Source: Arcobacter sp. | Lineage (GTDB): Bacteria; Campylobacterota; Campylobacteria; Campylobacterales; Arcobacteraceae | DNA: 27,924 bases | Reading direction: 5' to 3' | Assembly: GCA_965662175.1 (NCBI GenBank) | Contig: CBFIGT010000007.1 | Coordinates: 1 to 27,924, forward strand | In this document: positions 7,690 to 14,640 of the stretch, piece by piece | Layout of the letters: every line of letters starts with the position of its first letter | Position numbering within the stretch: position 1 is the first letter of the stretch | Program-made: the position numbers and the translations under genes | The notes under the pieces: generated by a model | Seen by the model: the letters and a program-made list of their open reading frames with translations, nothing else | The model's database searches: none | Told to the model about the DNA's origin: nothing

Positions 7690-7698
7690 ATTATATCA
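7690..7698 (-). promoter_or_regulatory. Extended -10 promoter (TGaTATAAT) for the response regulator/kinase pair
   Basis: Minus strand reads TGA-TATAAT, the TGA being the RND stop codon; 24 nt upstream of the regulator ATG with an AAGGA SD between. Confidence 0.6.
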
Positions 7699-10600
7699 AC
7701 TTTTAGATTTATGCATCCAAACAAAAAATAGAGGAATAAAAATTAGCGTTAAAAATGTTCCTACTATCAATCCTCCAATTACAACAGCACCCAAAGGAGC
7801 TAATCTCTCTAATCCAATTGCCCAGCCAAGAGAAACAGGAATCATCCCAACGCTTACACTAATAGCTGTCATTAAAACAGGTCTTGTTCTTGTTTTGATA
7901 CTTTCAATCATTGCCTCTTTTGCATCAAGTCCATTATGTAATTTTTCTAGTGCAAAGTGAATCAATAAAATAGCATTATTTACAATTACTCCTGCTAGCA
8001 AAATAAAGCCAATCATAGCACTCATAGAACTATGATAATCAAGTAATATAAGTATCCATGAAGCACCACCAATAGTCAAAGGAATTGATAAAATTATCAA
8101 AATTGGTATTTTCAAAGAGTTAAACATAGGAATCATAACTAAAAATATTAATACAATTCCAATTCCAACTGCTTTTACTATTCTAATTGAAGAGTCTTGA
8201 AACTGTTGTATATCTCCTGTATGTATTAGTTTTATATCATTTGGTAATACTATATCTTTTGAAGCCTCCTCGAAGTTTGCCATTAGATGAGAGATAGAAG
8301 CTTTCTCTCTAAAACCTAAAATATCAATAGTATAATCTAAATTCTCTCTTGTGATAATATTTGGTTCTAACTCTTTACTAAGTGTTGCGATTGCATTTAA
8401 AGGAATTTTACCTTTTGGTGTTGTTATTAAAAGTGTCTCTAAAGATTTGATACTTTTAATACTTTTTTTCTCAACCCAAACTCTAACTGGAAAATCAATA
8501 CTATTATTAATAGGAAATAAAGAGATATTAGCACCTCTTAAAACAGCTTGAACTTGTGCTACTATATCTTTTTCTTTTATTTCATAATTGAAAGCTTTTT
8601 TCTTATCTATATTTAAAATATATGAAATATTATCAATCTCCCAAGATTTACTTACATTTACAATTCCTTTTGTTTCATACATAGCTTTTTCATACTCTAA
8701 AGCTTTGTCATAAAGCTTATTTAAATCATTTCCATATAAAGTAACATCAATATTAGCTTTAATACTAGCCATCGCTGTAGCACCTGAATCACTCACTTCT
8801 AATCTTTTTATATTAGGAATTAAAGCTAGTTTTTCTCTTAAGTCTCTTTCAATATCCCAAATAGTGTTTTTTCGCTCGAACCTATTTACATAGTTTGCAA
8901 CTATTAAAATAGTATTAACTCCACCACCACTTCCGATACTTAAAACAGATGCTTCTCCTCCTATTGAAGAGGAAATTGTTTGAATCTGTTTATCTTCTAA
9001 AAGTATCTTTTCTGCTTGATTTAAAATCTCTTCTGTTTTTTCAATTGCTAAGTTTGAATCTGTTTGAATTTTTATTTTAACAGCACCTGTGTCCATTGCT
9101 GGCATTAACTCTTGTCCTGCCATTGGCATTACTATTTTTGCACTTACAAGAAAAAGAACAAAAAGTCCAAAAAGATAGAGTGTTGCAATAGATTTTTTTT
9201 CTAAAGCTAATTCTGTAGAACTTACAAAAAATTTAGCAAAAAAGTCATTTAGTTTTTTACTTAAGATATTGAATTTTTCTTCTAAATTTAGAAGATGTTT
9301 GTTGTTTATTGCTAAAATTTTTGTAGAAATAAGTGGAACAAAAGTAATAGATACAAAATATGAAGCAATAAGTGCTAAAAGTAGAGTTCCAATAAGTGGA
9401 CCAAATACTGTTTGTGGATAATCTCCTACAAACAAAATAGGAAGTAGAGCAATAATAGTTGTCAAAGTTCCAGAAAAATCTGCAAACATAATTTCACTTG
9501 TTCCATCTTCAACGGCTTTTCCCATAGGTTTTTTTAAAGAGCTAAAATGTCTTTCAATATTTTCAACAACTACAACTGTATCATCAAGTAATAGTCCTAA
9601 AGCTAGTATAATAGCTGTCAAAGTGATGATATTAAATTCAAAATCAAAAAGCCACATTAAAGCTAAAGTTGAGATATAAACCATTGGAATAGTAAAAAGA
9701 ACTACTAAAAGTTGTCTAAATGAAGCTAAAAAAATAAAGACAACAATCATAGACATAATAATAGCATCCCTTAAAGATTCAAACATATTTGAAGTACTTT
9801 GAATAATAGTTGTTTTTTGAGTATCTGTTATTTCAAAAGATAAATTTGGATACTCATTTTTAACTCTTTCTAACTCTTTTTCAACAGCTTCAATACTTGA
9901 AATTACATCAGCATTATCATTTCTTTGTATACTCAAAGCGATAGCTTTTTTACCATTTCCATGATAAATAGCACTATTATTATAGTGCCCAAAATAGATA
10001 TTTGCTACATCTTTAAGTTTTAAATCTTTTGAAATTTGTATCTCTTGTAACTTATGAATAGCATCTTTTTGCTCTTTTATTTTTAATAAAAATCTATTTG
10101 TTTTATTATCAACAGTTCCTAAAGCATAGTCTTTATTATTTTGTTTTACGATATCCATAACTTCTAAAAGTGTAAGATTATATCTATCAAGCTTACTTTT
10201 ATCTACTATTATTTGTAGCTCTTTTTTATAGCCTCCAAAAATATCTACATTTGCGATACCTGGAAGTTTTAAAAACTCTTTTGAGATATCATTTTGTAAA
10301 ATCTGTCTGATACTTTCAAGTTCTAAACTATTTTTTGATGAAACTGATATCGTAATAATAGGTGCAGTTGATTCTGATATTTTATCTATTTGTGGCTCTA
10401 AAATATCACTTGGAAGTGAAGATTTTATTTTATCAATTGCATTTCTTACATCACTAGTGGCATCTATTAAACTTTTTTCATAGTTAAATTCAGCCTTTAT
10501 TACACAAACTTCATCAATAGTTGAAGAGTAAACTCTTCTTATTTTATCAATTGTATATAGTTCGCTCTCAACAGCAATAGCGATATTTGAAGCCATATCT

Positions 10601-10773
10601 TTTGCAGAAGCACTAGGTTGAACTATGATAATAGCTACTTCAGGTCTATTTGAGTTTGGAAATAGTTTTTTATCTAATTTAAAATATGCATTTACTCCTA
10701 AAAATAAAAAGAGTGCCAAAATTGAGTAAATAAAAAATGGACGAGCTAATATTGCTCTTACTAAAGTTCTCAT
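7696..10773 (-). CDS. RND efflux transporter permease subunit (AcrB/AcrD/AcrF family)
   Basis: 1025 aa; GLLLDDTVVVVENIER, GVIVNNAILL, RTRPVLMT, APLGAVVIGGL motifs. Confidence 0.97.
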   Translation of the reverse strand: MRTLVRAILARPFFIYSILALFLFLGVNAYFKLDKKLFPNSNRPEVAIIIVQPSASAKDMASNIAIAVESELYTIDKIRRVYSSTIDEVCVIKAEFNYEKSLIDATSDVRNAIDKIKSSLPSDILEPQIDKISESTAPIITISVSSKNSLELESIRQILQNDISKEFLKLPGIANVDIFGGYKKELQIIVDKSKLDRYNLTLLEVMDIVKQNNKDYALGTVDNKTNRFLLKIKEQKDAIHKLQEIQISKDLKLKDVANIYFGHYNNSAIYHGNGKKAIALSIQRNDNADVISSIEAVEKELERVKNEYPNLSFEITDTQKTTIIQSTSNMFESLRDAIIMSMIVVFIFLASFRQLLVVLFTIPMVYISTLALMWLFDFEFNIITLTAIILALGLLLDDTVVVVENIERHFSSLKKPMGKAVEDGTSEIMFADFSGTLTTIIALLPILFVGDYPQTVFGPLIGTLLLALIASYFVSITFVPLISTKILAINNKHLLNLEEKFNILSKKLNDFFAKFFVSSTELALEKKSIATLYLFGLFVLFLVSAKIVMPMAGQELMPAMDTGAVKIKIQTDSNLAIEKTEEILNQAEKILLEDKQIQTISSSIGGEASVLSIGSGGGVNTILIVANYVNRFERKNTIWDIERDLREKLALIPNIKRLEVSDSGATAMASIKANIDVTLYGNDLNKLYDKALEYEKAMYETKGIVNVSKSWEIDNISYILNIDKKKAFNYEIKEKDIVAQVQAVLRGANISLFPINNSIDFPVRVWVEKKSIKSIKSLETLLITTPKGKIPLNAIATLSKELEPNIITRENLDYTIDILGFREKASISHLMANFEEASKDIVLPNDIKLIHTGDIQQFQDSSIRIVKAVGIGIVLIFLVMIPMFNSLKIPILIILSIPLTIGGASWILILLDYHSSMSAMIGFILLAGVIVNNAILLIHFALEKLHNGLDAKEAMIESIKTRTRPVLMTAISVSVGMIPVSLGWAIGLERLAPLGAVVIGGLIVGTFLTLIFIPLFFVWMHKSKS

Positions 10774-11918
10774 TTTTCTTCTACTATTTTATAGTTATTA
10801 CTACTTGGTAAAGTAGCAAGTTTAGAAGCACTTGCAAGGGCAACTTTTTGATTTACTCTCTCTTTTAAGACTACAAATTTATCATCTTGAAGTACTACTT
10901 CAACTTTTTTAAATTTAAACAATTCATTCTCATAAACTACAATATAAGTTCCATCTTTTTTATGTAAAATTGTATTTATAGGAAGTGAAAAATCATTAGT
11001 TTTTTTTGTGATAACTTTTATATTCACAAAACTATCAATTGGTAAATCTAAGTTTGTATCTAAATCAATTTCGGCTTGATATAAAGAGTTGTTGGCACTT
11101 TTTAAGATTTTTGTGATTTTCGCTTTTGTTAAATTATTAGAATCATTTATAATAACTTCTAAACCTTTGATAATATCTTTTGAAGCAAAAGAGAAAGTAA
11201 GTTTTTGTTTATTATCAAGAATAGTTAAAATAGCTTTATTTGCTGTTATTAAATCTCCTTCATTTACAAATATTTCTCCAGCTATTCCATCTTTTGAAGC
11301 TTTTATATTATAGTAATCCAAGCTAGCTTTTTTTGAATCATAAGAGTTTTTCATAGCTTTAAGTTCATACTCTTTTGCTTCTATACTTTTTAATGTAGAG
11401 TCAAGTTTTGATTTTTTTATTTCGTACTCTACATTTGAGAGTTCAAAGTTCTCTTTTGATAAACCACCTGCTTTATAAAGGATGCTATTTCTATTTAATC
11501 TATTTTTTGAAGCATTCAAATCGTTTTCAAGTGAACTAATATTTGCTTTTATACTTTGAAGTGATGATTGAATTGATTTTATTGAATTTTTTATCTGTTT
11601 TAAAGATTCATTTAACTCTTTACTATCAATTTTTATAATCAAATCACCTTTTTTTATAATATCATTTTCATTTACATAGATTTTTTCTATAAAGCCTGTT
11701 ACTTTAGTAGCTAAATTAATAGACTTAGATGATTCTAACTTAGCTGTAAATGAGCTACTTTGTTCTATATTTCTTCTTTTTTCTTCTACAACATTTAGAC
11801 TAAAAATAGGTTTTTGTGCTGTTTGTAAAGATGATAAATCATCTTTTTTGTTTTTGATTAATTTTATTGCACCTAAAATTATTGTGATTAGTATCACAAA
11901 TAAAACTATTTTTTTCAC
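10770..11918 (-). CDS. RND efflux periplasmic adaptor (MFP)
   Basis: N-terminal anchor, lipoyl half-motifs (KVTGFIEKIYVNENDIIKKGD; IKASKDGIAGEIFVNEGD), long coiled coil; GTG start overlaps the tolC stop. Confidence 0.95.
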   Translation of the reverse strand: MKKIVLFVILITIILGAIKLIKNKKDDLSSLQTAQKPIFSLNVVEEKRRNIEQSSSFTAKLESSKSINLATKVTGFIEKIYVNENDIIKKGDLIIKIDSKELNESLKQIKNSIKSIQSSLQSIKANISSLENDLNASKNRLNRNSILYKAGGLSKENFELSNVEYEIKKSKLDSTLKSIEAKEYELKAMKNSYDSKKASLDYYNIKASKDGIAGEIFVNEGDLITANKAILTILDNKQKLTFSFASKDIIKGLEVIINDSNNLTKAKITKILKSANNSLYQAEIDLDTNLDLPIDSFVNIKVITKKTNDFSLPINTILHKKDGTYIVVYENELFKFKKVEVVLQDDKFVVLKERVNQKVALASASKLATLPSSNNYKIVEEK

Positions 11919-13195
11919 TTTGACTCCTTGAGTATATAATCAAGATAAAAGTATGATTTTAAAAGATTATATTTTGCTAATATTTTTTTTGATTTAACAA
12001 TCGCATTTGAACTTTTTGCATAAAGATAGGTATAAATATCAATTGCTTCTTGTTCATATCTTATTTTTTCTATTTTTTCACTCTCACTTGTAAATAAAAA
12101 CTCTTTTGAACTACCTAAATATAAATCATTGTTTTGTTTTATCTTATTTATAGCTTCTGTTATATTTTGTTTTATTTCAAGCCTTCTTTTTTGTAGTTCT
12201 AAAGAGGCTTGTTGTTGTGCAATTTTTGCTTTTTGTACTAATAAGCTTGTTTTCCCAAAATCAAAAATATTCCAATTTAGTGTAACTCCTGCTTGCCAAA
12301 TTTTATCCTCATCTCCCTCATTTGAGTATACTTTGCTATATTGTGTATTTGCAGTGATTTTTGGATAATAAGATGATTTTGCTTTTTGGTACTCATTTGC
12401 TGTTTTTTGATAATTTAGAAAGCTAATTTTATATGTAGATAAGTTTTCAATTTTATCAAAGTAGTGTTTGTTATCTAAAAGTCTATTTTTTAAAATCTCT
12501 TTTTTAGACTCTTTGATATCTTCTATTTTCAACTCTTTTAAATCATCTTCATAGTTTATTAATATAGCTAATGAAGATTTTAAAATATCTATATTTGAAG
12601 ATAAGGTATTTATTTGAGTAATTATATCTTGAAGCGTAGCATCTACTTTTAGAAGTTCAATTTTTGCTCTTTTGCCTACTTTAAGCTCTTGAGCAATATT
12701 CTCTTTTAAAATATTTAAAGCCTCTTTTAACTCCTCTTTTGCATCTTTTTGTTTTTGTAAAGATAAAATATCTAAATAAATCGCTTGTACATTATAAACT
12801 ATTTGATTTAGAGTAAGTCTTAAAAAGTTATTTTGTATCTCATTTTGGATTTTTGAAATACTAATCTCTTTTGTATCACTAAAACCATTAAACAAAACTA
12901 CACTATAACTTACACCAATATTTGAAATATCAGTACTTGTAGCAACAGATGGAGAGATAGGTGGGGCTAAAGGTTTTAGTGTTCTAGCACTATCATATTT
13001 TGTATATGAAGAGTGTAAGTCAACTGAACCATAATTTTTTGCTTTTGTAGCTTCAAGAGTTGAGTTTAAAGCTTTTTTTATACTTTTTTGTATGAGTATA
13101 TCTCTATTTTCATTTCTAGCTTTTTCTTCTGCTTCTTCTAAAGTGAGAGCAAAAAGAGTAAAACAAAAAGATAATAAAATCAAAACTATTTTCAC
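11915..13195 (-). CDS. TolC-family outer membrane efflux protein
   Basis: Signal peptide (LFA-LTLEEA), two OEP repeats (YYPKIT, GVTLNWNIFDFG); first gene of the efflux operon; AAGGA SD. Confidence 0.95.
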   Translation of the reverse strand: MKIVLILLSFCFTLFALTLEEAEEKARNENRDILIQKSIKKALNSTLEATKAKNYGSVDLHSSYTKYDSARTLKPLAPPISPSVATSTDISNIGVSYSVVLFNGFSDTKEISISKIQNEIQNNFLRLTLNQIVYNVQAIYLDILSLQKQKDAKEELKEALNILKENIAQELKVGKRAKIELLKVDATLQDIITQINTLSSNIDILKSSLAILINYEDDLKELKIEDIKESKKEILKNRLLDNKHYFDKIENLSTYKISFLNYQKTANEYQKAKSSYYPKITANTQYSKVYSNEGDEDKIWQAGVTLNWNIFDFGKTSLLVQKAKIAQQQASLELQKRRLEIKQNITEAINKIKQNNDLYLGSSKEFLFTSESEKIEKIRYEQEAIDIYTYLYAKSSNAIVKSKKILAKYNLLKSYFYLDYILKESK

Positions 13196-13266: not shown

Positions 13267-13857
13267 TTATTGGAAAATACTAACCAAAGAATCCTTATCA
13301 ACACTATCTTGTAAAATAGGGTATATCCCTTTTGCAATAAGAGAAATTTTTAAATCATAGTCAATATTTTTTATTAAAAAATAGTTTACCTTATAATCAT
13401 AAAGTAAATCAGGTAAAAGATTACATGCTATTTCATCTTCATTATTAAATACTGGATTTTTAATACAGTTTTGAGATTTTAATTTATAATCTTTTATAAA
13501 ATATATCCAAATAAACTCAGCATTTTCATCAGCATAATCAAGCTCTTTATTTGAGTTTGAACAAATTGCTAAATGAAACTCATTATTTATTTCATGTACT
13601 TTAATATTACTTCCCGTAACTAAAGCCAATGAAATCTTTTTTCTAGCACTTTTCACAATTCTTGCAAAAGTAGCTCTTGATACATTCATTTTTTTAGCAG
13701 CATCTTCTTGATACATACAAAATGAATCCATTAAATGTATTGCTTCTAACTCTTCATGCAATAAAACAATGTCAGCTTTAGCCTCAATATCTTTTGGACC
13801 GAAATATTTACACACAGGAACTAATTCTAGTTTTCTTTCTAATTTATCTCTTGCCAT
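13267..13857 (-). CDS. DUF134 HTH DNA-binding protein with C-terminal degenerate NifB/NifX-like domain
   Basis: MAR...YFGP...EELEAIHLMD...YQEDAAKKMNVSRATFARIVKSARKKISLALVTG matches DUF134; C-terminal ~105 aa has NifX-like spacing (LAICSNS...AEFIWIY...IKNP...KVNYFL...KGIYPI). Confidence 0.88.
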   Translation of the reverse strand: MARDKLERKLELVPVCKYFGPKDIEAKADIVLLHEELEAIHLMDSFCMYQEDAAKKMNVSRATFARIVKSARKKISLALVTGSNIKVHEINNEFHLAICSNSNKELDYADENAEFIWIYFIKDYKLKSQNCIKNPVFNNEDEIACNLLPDLLYDYKVNYFLIKNIDYDLKISLIAKGIYPILQDSVDKDSLVSIFQ

Positions 13858-13880
13858 TAACTACCTTAATAATTTAACTA

Positions 13881-13889
13881 ATTTTATCA
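13881..13889 (-). promoter_or_regulatory. Extended -10 promoter (TGaTAAAAT) of the DUF134 gene
   Basis: Reverse complement of ATTTTATCA; 23 nt upstream of the ATG with an AAGGT SD between. Confidence 0.6.
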
Positions 13890-13907
13890 TATTTTTAATA
13901 AATATAC

Positions 13908-13936
13908 TTGACATATGTTCACTAATTTGATATTAT
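13908..13936 (+). promoter_or_regulatory. Sigma70 promoter TTGACA-N17-TATTAT (with TGn extension)
   Basis: TTGACA 13908-13913, 17-nt spacer ending TGA, TATTAT 13931-13936; predicted start about 13943. Confidence 0.75.
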
Positions 13937-13951
13937 TCTGTCATATGTTCA
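13908..13951. promoter_or_regulatory. Tandem operator-like repeats TG(A/T)CATATGTTCA, probable DUF134 binding sites
   Basis: TTGACATATGTTCA (13908-13921) and CTGTCATATGTTCA (13938-13951), 30 bp apart, each with a palindromic CATATG core, overlapping the -35 and the +1. Confidence 0.65.
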
Positions 13952-14187
13952 TTACGTTAGATTTATAAATTAAAGTTTATTATTCACTTTTTTTACAGTA
14001 ATTATAAATCGTTCCGCTCCTTTTTGTTAACTATTTATAGTCTAACTAATTAACATTTTATATTAAACTTATTGCCCCTCCTCTTTTATTTAAAGATTAT
14101 AAGTTTAGTAAAATGCCCCTTCTTTTTGTAAAAACCAACTTTTATATATATCTTATACTTTATTGGTTTTTACAATGTTTTAAAACA
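13943..14187 (+). ncRNA. Candidate structured ncRNA or long 5' leader with three C/U-rich motifs
   Basis: Promoter upstream; stems 13956-13970/14033-14046, 14064-14072/14099-14107, 14126-14138/14163-14175; motifs TTCCGCTCCTTTTT, GCCCCTCCTCTTTT, GCCCCTTCTTTTT. Confidence 0.55.
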
Positions 14188-14210
14188 AATTTCTAATATA
14201 GGAGTATTCT

Positions 14211-14543
14211 ATGAGAATAGTTTTCCCAACAAAAGACAATCTAAGTTACATCTCAAAAACATCAGAAAATTTTGAAGATGCTGTTTATTTAACTGTTTTA
14301 AATGTAAAAGGCCAAAATATAATCGAAGTTGAAACATTTAAAAATCATCACTATAATGATGAACTAGAGATGATTAAAGAGTTTAAAGATAATAAATTTA
14401 AAGTACTAATGGTACCAAATGAAGATTTATTACCTTTAGACAAACTAAAAGAAGAGGGTATATCAATTTATAAAGATAGCTCTTCTAAGCCTGTATTAAA
14501 CATATTCAGCGAGTTTGTTCAAGATAAACTTGTAAAACTTTAA
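14211..14543 (+). CDS. NifB/NifX family (dinitrogenase FeMo-cofactor-binding-like) protein, degenerate
   Basis: MRIVFPT...S.NFEDAVYLTV...ETFKN...LKEEGISIY...FVQDKL follows the family layout; AGGAG SD at 14200-14204. Confidence 0.75.
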   Translation: MRIVFPTKDNLSYISKTSENFEDAVYLTVLNVKGQNIIEVETFKNHHYNDELEMIKEFKDNKFKVLMVPNEDLLPLDKLKEEGISIYKDSSSKPVLNIFSEFVQDKLVKL

Positions 14544-14545
14544 TC

Positions 14546-14574
14546 AAAAAAAAAGCTGGTTAAAACCAGCTTTT
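14546..14574. terminator. Bidirectional intrinsic terminator
   Basis: AAAAGCTGGTT/AACCAGCTTTT inverted repeat; 9 U on the minus strand, 4 U on the plus strand; between convergent NifX-like gene and aroC. Confidence 0.85.
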
Positions 14575-14603
14575 AACCTTTCAACTTGACCAAAGTAAAG
14601 GTT
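14546..14603 (-). ncRNA. Candidate ~58-nt two-hairpin small RNA (UGGUC loop + terminator)
   Basis: Minus-strand -10 TAATAT (14610-14615) predicts +1 at 14603, the first base of the AACCTTT/AAAGGTT stem; ends in the terminator. Confidence 0.45.
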
Positions 14604-14640
14604 TTGAATATATTACAAAACTTTACATTAAACTATACTT

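Follow-up and report, generated by a model that had tools for sequence, protein, structure and literature searches.

A predicted three-domain RNA beside a DUF134-NifX regulator in Arcobacter and its likely pairing with acetate kinase mRNA

The locus described here raises the question of what a DUF134 regulator controls when it stands divergent from a promoter that is followed by a long untranslated stretch. We analyzed 27,924 nucleotides (the window) from an Arcobacter sp., a genome of 28% GC within the Arcobacter family; the named homologues of its DUF134 protein belong to Halarcobacter, Malaciobacter, and Arcobacter. Of 184 genomes of the family, 93 gave a DUF134 match, and 51 orthologous and 25 more distant paralogous DUF134 loci were read. 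Genomes are given below by G numbers and genera by g codes, where g1 is the window's own genus and G000 its genome. The reading that we favor, with a probability of roughly 0.6, is that a DUF134-NifX fusion protein represses both an RNA and the pyruvate dehydrogenase (PDH) operon, and that the RNA would block translation of the acetate kinase gene, ackA.

The predicted repressor is encoded on the reverse strand at 13267 to 13857. It is a helix-turn-helix protein of the DUF134 (UPF0251) family, the sole DUF134 match in the assembly (PF02001, E 5.5e-15, 56.2 bits against a gathering score of 27). A Pfam profile search of the protein gave no PF02579 match for its NifX part, and PF02579 is carried by 4 of the DUF134 homologues listed. 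In an AlphaFold model of the C-terminal half (pLDDT 76.6), the best Foldseek matches were PH0822 (E 4e-6), TM1816, NafY, NifX, and MTH1175, with E values up to 7e-4; together with the PF02001 match, these NifX/MTH1175-type matches confirm the fusion that the initial annotation had proposed from the letters. The fused domain has a single invariant cysteine among 14 orthologues, C99, which is also found in all 24 homologue rows among the matches listed. According to the available part of one report, Fe-S species are bound by members of IPR003731 (NifB/NifX/IssA), and sulfide together with iron induces IssA (PMC5524996). The fold is shared with the C-terminal domain of the DUF134 protein, but here the NifX domain is either fused to the DUF134 helix-turn-helix or, in the stand-alone open reading frame described below, degenerate. 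No Mrp/NBP35 or Fe-S MinD-type ATPase adjoining the locus was recognized in the open reading frame list, read by eye, in agreement with what had been noted before. However, the accompanying statement that DUF134 usually sits with Mrp/MinD genes does not describe the Arcobacter family, in which DUF134-NifX genes accompany cydAB instead. Upstream, an RND efflux set (AcrB-like, adaptor, OEP family) and a two-component pair lie at 7696 to 13195, between htpX and the DUF134 gene; in same-genus relatives htpX directly abuts DUF134, and this block thus looks inserted in the window.

Divergent from the DUF134 gene, a sigma70 promoter of the form TTGACA-17-TG-TATTAT lies at 13908 to 13936 on the forward strand (11 of 12 matches). 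One palindrome, operator 1 (TTGACATATGTTCA, 13908 to 13921), covers its -35 box, and operator 2 (13938 to 13951) covers the predicted transcription start at about 13943. These are the two best matches genome-wide, operator 1 being the top one, to a matrix that was built including these sites. Promoter-like matches as a class occur at chance level (18 found, 16 expected), so that support for the promoter rests on conservation: the same layout was found in 50 of the 51 orthologous loci. The two CATATG-core repeats that the initial annotation had seen over the promoter proved equally persistent, twin sites with a conserved spacing of 29 to 31 bp being present in 49 of the 51 orthologous and 23 of the 25 paralogous loci. 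From this co-occurrence we predict that DUF134 binds the CATATG palindrome, and their overlap with the -35 box and the start would point to repression. Elsewhere, near-perfect operator pairs 32 to 33 bp apart were seen at G124:C1:259927-259972 and G142:C1:969743-969789, not at cydA, aceE, or DUF134. At the predicted start, an ATG opens a leaderless frame of 7 codons (13945 to 13968) inside the P1 stem, and the length and sequence of this frame differ among genera.

Between the promoter and the NifX-like open reading frame are 268 untranslated bases, whose fold consists of three domains. The region from 13943 to 14213 folds at -42.7 kcal/mol (z -4.3), and none of 200 shuffled sequences was as good. 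From fold and conservation we predict a regulatory RNA of about 240 nt on the forward strand, with presumed ends at 13943 and 14180. Domain I carries a C/U loop (14016 to 14028), the predicted seed for the ackA ribosome-binding site (RBS). The hairpin of domain II (14060 to 14110) has a C/U-rich loop at 14074 to 14087, the counterpart of which holds the ackA seed in g20 and g16. A third C-rich motif, single-stranded (14115 to 14123), may serve as a seed for pta or for a rhodanese of the Sox cluster. Finally, hairpin III (14123 to 14175) has a long A/U stem, conserved in g1, g4, g14, and g16, and a variable loop, and may act as a terminator or RNase III site. Thus, both the structured untranslated region of about 270 nt and the three anti-SD-like motifs described earlier are borne out. 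Among 22 loci tested, all 17 of the intact type gave z between -2.3 and -5.5, two decayed g20 loci gave +1.0 and +1.3, and three g10 loci gave -3.3, -1.0, and +0.7. In five g10 loci (L005, L006, L069, L070, L072), the place of the RNA ahead of the NifX-like gene is taken by a short leader and a third copy of the operator. No small open reading frame in the RNA region was common to the 22 loci, Rfam gave no match at gathering score and none within 13943 to 14200 at E up to 5, and a blastn search for a long antisense partner elsewhere in the genome gave nothing beyond chance.

In the 20 loci of g20, 97.6% of cells are paired; of the 29 base pairs, 7 are compensatory, changed on both sides, as counted on a structure derived from that same alignment; none of 500 shuffles was as good, and slid controls gave 0 to 3 pairs. 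Beside variable stems, these loci share a loop of about 45 nt that shows almost no variation. In g1 (8 sequences), 4 of 50 pairs covary. In both genera, base pairing joins the end of domain I to the first bases past the predicted start, in line with transcription beginning at about 13943. These results bear on the possibility that the region is neutral debris of an ancestral DUF134-cydAB-NifX operon left after loss of cydAB, its hairpins being AT-rich noise and its RBS matches a matter of shared ancestry. The cydAB genes do occupy this position in paralogous loci, and the RNA sequence can be aligned only poorly between genera; however, the consistently low z of the intact-type loci, the compensatory pairs, and the near-invariant loops beside variable stems make such an origin very improbable. 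We consider it very likely that the RNA is real.

If so, is it a separate product or the leader of the gene that follows? The NifX-like gene (14211 to 14543, forward strand) encodes a degenerate protein of 110 aa that scores 23.1 bits against PF02579, below the gathering cut-off of 26.3, and is 35% identical to a paralogue scoring above that cut-off. No invariant Cys or His was found across 22 orthologues, in keeping with the stand-alone degenerate gene of the first description. A complex prediction for the DUF134 and NifX-like proteins scored 0.01, which is evidence neither way. The gene is intact in 36 of 50 parsed loci and appears dispensable: all 7 same-genus genomes gave no match to it and yet keep the promoter, the operators, and the three hairpins up to the terminator (in the window a bidirectional intrinsic one at 14546 to 14574, beyond which lies aroC on the other strand); 3 of 4 g16 loci likewise keep promoter, operators, and hairpins without the open reading frame. 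This retention suggests that the RNA is the likely main output, as in the repressor-to-RNA logic put forward at the outset, and the operators and hairpins are kept beside DUF134 homologues. A cis-acting leader, an attenuator or protein-binding switch of the NifX-like gene, is accordingly improbable. It would explain why the region lies between promoter and open reading frame in most loci and why the two g20 loci with a decayed RNA lose the open reading frame along with it, but besides the loci without a downstream gene, g10 keeps the open reading frame behind a short leader that was unstructured in two of three cases tested, and the loops are conserved in sequence and unpaired with the NifX RBS in folds. 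Expression was looked at as contigs from four of 7 listed runs. In X1, a run that we guess to be RNA and that may be DNA, one contig stops at 13945, close to the predicted start, and another spans 14052 to 14391, as a leader would; the RNA runs X4 and X6 have contigs that continue across the promoter, only X1 having a contig stop at 13945, and those of X7 cover only the upstream gene. Taken together, these contigs are compatible with the presence as well as the absence of a discrete RNA.

On the opposite strand, a second small unit occupies 14546 to 14613, with a hairpin topped by UUUGGYCAAG, a terminator, and a conserved TAnnAT -10 box at about 14613 to 14608. The initial annotation had counted this convergent sRNA as part of the module. 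As a conserved and folded unit it stands: the part from about 14601 to 14546 folds with z -3.2, and the motif (-10 box, hairpin, terminator) follows aroC in 33 of the 51 loci. Its membership in the module does not. The long form occurs in 38 of 184 genomes, and a short-form pattern in 72 of 184, some possibly by chance; the short form is present in 35 of 44 g11 genomes, which have at most a distant DUF134 paralogue, and in G124 and G128 the motif sits 17 and 23 kb from DUF134. Rfam gave no match for it, and a target search gave nothing consistent. It looks like a real and separate element, an sRNA or aroC 3' end, independent of the DUF134 module.

Which mRNA would the three-domain RNA act on? 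Ribosome-binding regions, taken from crude gene calls, were ranked by duplex plus opening energy for 2566 genes in the window's genome and for 1914 genes (2.0 of 2.68 Mb) in G127, whose loops differ from those of the window. The gene ackA (TIGR00016; G000 C104:6896-8092), which follows pta, had rank 3 among the 1914 genes of G127 and rank 4 among 1187 in the joint ranking. In the window's genome its rank was only 174 of 2566 (-11.5 kcal/mol), and the pairing there, 9 bp, a bulge, and 3 bp, is among the weaker ones; in same-genus genomes the helix of ackA with the seed has 11 to 12 bp in 6 of 6. Across 30 further genomes the ackA RBS varies by genus and mirrors the RNA loop: AGGGAAAAGAC against GUCUUUUCCCU in g20, AACAAAGGAGU against ACUCCUUUGUU in g1, and AAUUAAAGGAA against UUCCUUUAAUU in one g16 genome. 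In g1 the seed itself is part of domain I; g20 and g16 have it in domain II. We compared each genome's own RNA with the RNAs of all foreign genera in a test that leaves out G000 and G127, and from which G130 (contig end) and G195 (short variant RNA) were dropped; the G195 (g16) pairing is weak, at -7.4. The own RNA paired best with ackA in 18 of 24 genomes (D -3.5 kcal/mol), which are kin and represent about 3 clear lineages (3 to 5 related) rather than 24 independent tests. By genus, the counts were 9 of 9 in g20, 3 of 6 in g1, 3 of 5 in g14, 2 of 2 in g16, and 1 of 2 in g4; the distinction is poor in g14 and g4, whose ackA pairs about equally well with foreign RNAs. For 11 comparison genes, not a random draw, the own RNA was best in 43 of 214 cases, with D from -1.6 to +1.6.

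Helix length tells a similar story. With a filter of three GC pairs, a contiguous ackA helix of at least 11 bp was found in 6 of 7 g1 and 8 of 10 g20 genomes, in 0 of 5 g14 (8 to 10 bp) and 0 of 2 g4 genomes, and in 0 of 3 g16 genomes, the 13-bp duplex of G022 (g16) having two GC pairs. None of 4 genomes in which the RNA is absent or decayed has such a helix, and two genomes each gave a background of 12 of 500 genes. The upstream ackA paralogue has it in 1 of 17 cases and tandem copies of the target type in 3 of 3; in G124, G128, and G142, a 12-bp seed site is also retained by a third copy of ackA, some 2.4 kb away from the target gene. Taken together, the sequence comparisons make ackA the likely target, which the RNA is predicted to repress.

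The C/U loops match many SD sequences, and we have to weigh the reading in which the RNA is a genuine trans-acting sRNA under DUF134 but ackA is a minor or chance partner, the RNA being a multi-target anti-SD RNA with its main targets elsewhere (nuoG, ilvB, the Sox rhodanese), possibly for metal or Fe-S sparing. One of the three C/U motifs is explained by ackA, whose rank in the window's genome is modest. Furthermore, nuoG is the top-ranked gene for the domain I loop in G127 and forms 10 to 11 bp with this loop in 3 of 6 held-out g20 genomes, the own-RNA energy of ilvB is -12.1 in g20, and the rhodanese pairs best with its own RNA in 4 of 4 g1 genomes, in g1 only. However, nuoG pairs equally well with the foreign g16 RNA, ilvB has a D of +0.7, and covariation across several genera was seen for ackA only. 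The same test was able to reject candidates, as panD, rank 2 in G127, collapsed in it (D +0.4). The gene pta (rank 15 of 2566 in the window's genome) fits only this genome and fails across genomes, cbb3 oxidase, a copper-sparing candidate, is represented by ccoN at about rank 300 to 500 of 2566, and degenerate seed patterns in g20 and g14 gave matches that either lacked conservation or came close to the control level. We therefore regard this many-target reading as unlikely. Nor did the ranked lists lend support to a metal-sparing output of Fur-RyhB type: Cu and Fe-S enzymes are not among the top-ranked targets, no enrichment of metal enzymes was seen on reading the lists, and the best target is acetate kinase.

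The distribution of operators would place the regulator near pyruvate metabolism. An intergenic scan of G127 revealed twin sites upstream of aceE, 58 bp apart and located between aceE and divergent genes that we take to be lipoate ligase and lipoyl synthase. The pair is present in 6 of 7 genomes read (G000, at C4:40531 and 40589 within C4:40531-40593, G001, G127, G124, G142, and G143) and was not found in G020; as background, at least two CATATG within 300 nt upstream occur at 12 of 2432 and 11 of 1914 genes. A single copy of the distal site, flank included, was found in 8 of 8 g1 and 25 of 25 g20 genomes, its position beside aceE having been checked in 6, and in none of the other 151 genomes, including g14, g4, g16, and g10, for a pattern that includes lineage-specific flanks. 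The paralogous loci (L075-L099) have DUF134-NifX paralogues divergent from an operon of the form small ORF-cydA-cydB-NifX, with cydA in 23 of 25, NifX-like genes in 22 of 25, and a twin operator in 23 of 25; L083 and L084 lack cydAB and have a single operator. In the window's genome the matrix scan found no operator at the cyd operon, and in G001, G124, and G142 cydA is far from consensus sites. Control thus appears to be divided, PDH and the RNA falling to the window's regulator and cytochrome bd to the paralogue. It is likely that the PDH operon (aceEF-lpd, with the divergent lipoylation genes) is under the DUF134 repressor in g1 and g20, and that DUF134 paralogues repress cytochrome bd operons. 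A single operator at the actP/DUF485 promoter (G000 C141:4625) was rejected, as it is absent in G127. Single sites were also seen upstream of a lactate-permease-like gene (operator-like, G000 C22:19564) and, in G127, upstream of the suf operon, nuoA, and a TRAP binding-protein gene (C1:1836125, 333397, and 79205); the latter three are not conserved at the orthologues in the window's genome. These genomes also have a gene that, from motif matches, is presumably a pyruvate:flavodoxin oxidoreductase-like gene. The available text of one source lists the PDH of A. butzleri as a more oxygen-stable enzyme (PMC2147049), and another, in the part at hand, states that cytochrome bd supports sulfide-resistant respiration (PMC4815019).

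The proposed circuit would operate as follows. DUF134-NifX, bound to the twin CATATG operators, would keep the RNA and PDH low while AckA is made. When a signal lifts repression, PDH would rise and the promoter would yield the RNA of about 240 nt with its three domains, a C/U loop of which would cover the ackA RBS and shut off acetate kinase translation, so that AckA falls. Pyruvate would then be directed to acetyl-CoA and respiration, with acetyl-CoA kept for the TCA cycle, away from acetate turnover. Both DNA binding by DUF134 and transcription of the RNA are presumed in this scheme. As for the signal, our best guess is oxygen or Fe-S damage, read by the predicted NifX-fold sensor domain, a role in oxygen or Fe-S sensing to which we give somewhat less than even odds; sulfide, or pyruvate in a PdhR-like manner, are alternatives. 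The sensor or anti-repressor functions that the initial annotation put forward for the NifX-like domains are candidate roles.

In E. coli, the GntR-family pyruvate sensor PdhR represses aceEF-lpd and a terminal oxidase operon. The arrangement here is alike in that one repressor stands over aceEF-lpd and, in the paralogues, over a terminal oxidase operon, but the regulator is DUF134 with a NifX fold and has an RNA arm. In the Fur-RyhB system, a repressor binds the promoter of an sRNA, which blocks translation once released. The same logic is described, in the accessible part of the report, for NikR-NikS of Helicobacter pylori (PMC8322730). In contrast to both, the repressor here belongs to an unrelated family, and acetate kinase is predicted as the target in place of metal enzymes or virulence factors. 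A precedent for repression of ackA by an sRNA is the enteric SdhX (RybD), which, as far as the consulted portion of the paper goes, pairs with ackA mRNA and links respiratory metabolism to the acetate node, is Hfq-dependent, and derives by RNase E cleavage from the 3' end of the sdh-suc mRNA (PMC6393394). The RNA described here, in contrast, has its own operator-gated promoter, three domains, and no Rfam match, and Hfq (PF17209) was not found in G000, a 94% complete genome. Within Campylobacterota, CJnc190 of Campylobacter jejuni also pairs a C/U-rich stem-loop with a G-rich RBS; per the sections seen, it has another locus and target (ptmG) and an overlapping antisense antagonist (PMC8687705), whereas the convergent RNA here does not overlap. 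Thus, the circuit logic is known (NikR-NikS, SdhX-ackA, CJnc190), and the parts appear to be new. No description of the DUF134 regulator, the RNA, or the PDH/bd link was found in the literature, as judged from titles and the beginnings of abstracts, with few subscription journals or regulon databases covered.

DUF134 is widespread, with no described function found, and this locus supplies an operator, a regulon of pyruvate/acetyl-CoA/acetate and terminal oxidase genes, and an RNA arm with a named target. It would give the DUF134 family a regulatory RNA with a target, none having been found in print. A broader and more doubtful possibility is that DUF134-NifX senses oxygen/Fe-S (or sulfide) as a one-component regulator not described so far and controls an aerobic switch in Arcobacteraceae. 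PDH and cytochrome bd would then be gated directly, and acetate kinase by way of a multi-domain RNA that is independent of Hfq and whose seed would have been rewritten, and moved between domains, from genus to genus while its target mRNA stayed the same. The natural covariation of seed and target among genera would be a clean case of Hfq-free sRNA evolution. Arcobacters tolerate air better than campylobacters, and the circuit, if it operates as predicted, bears on this difference.
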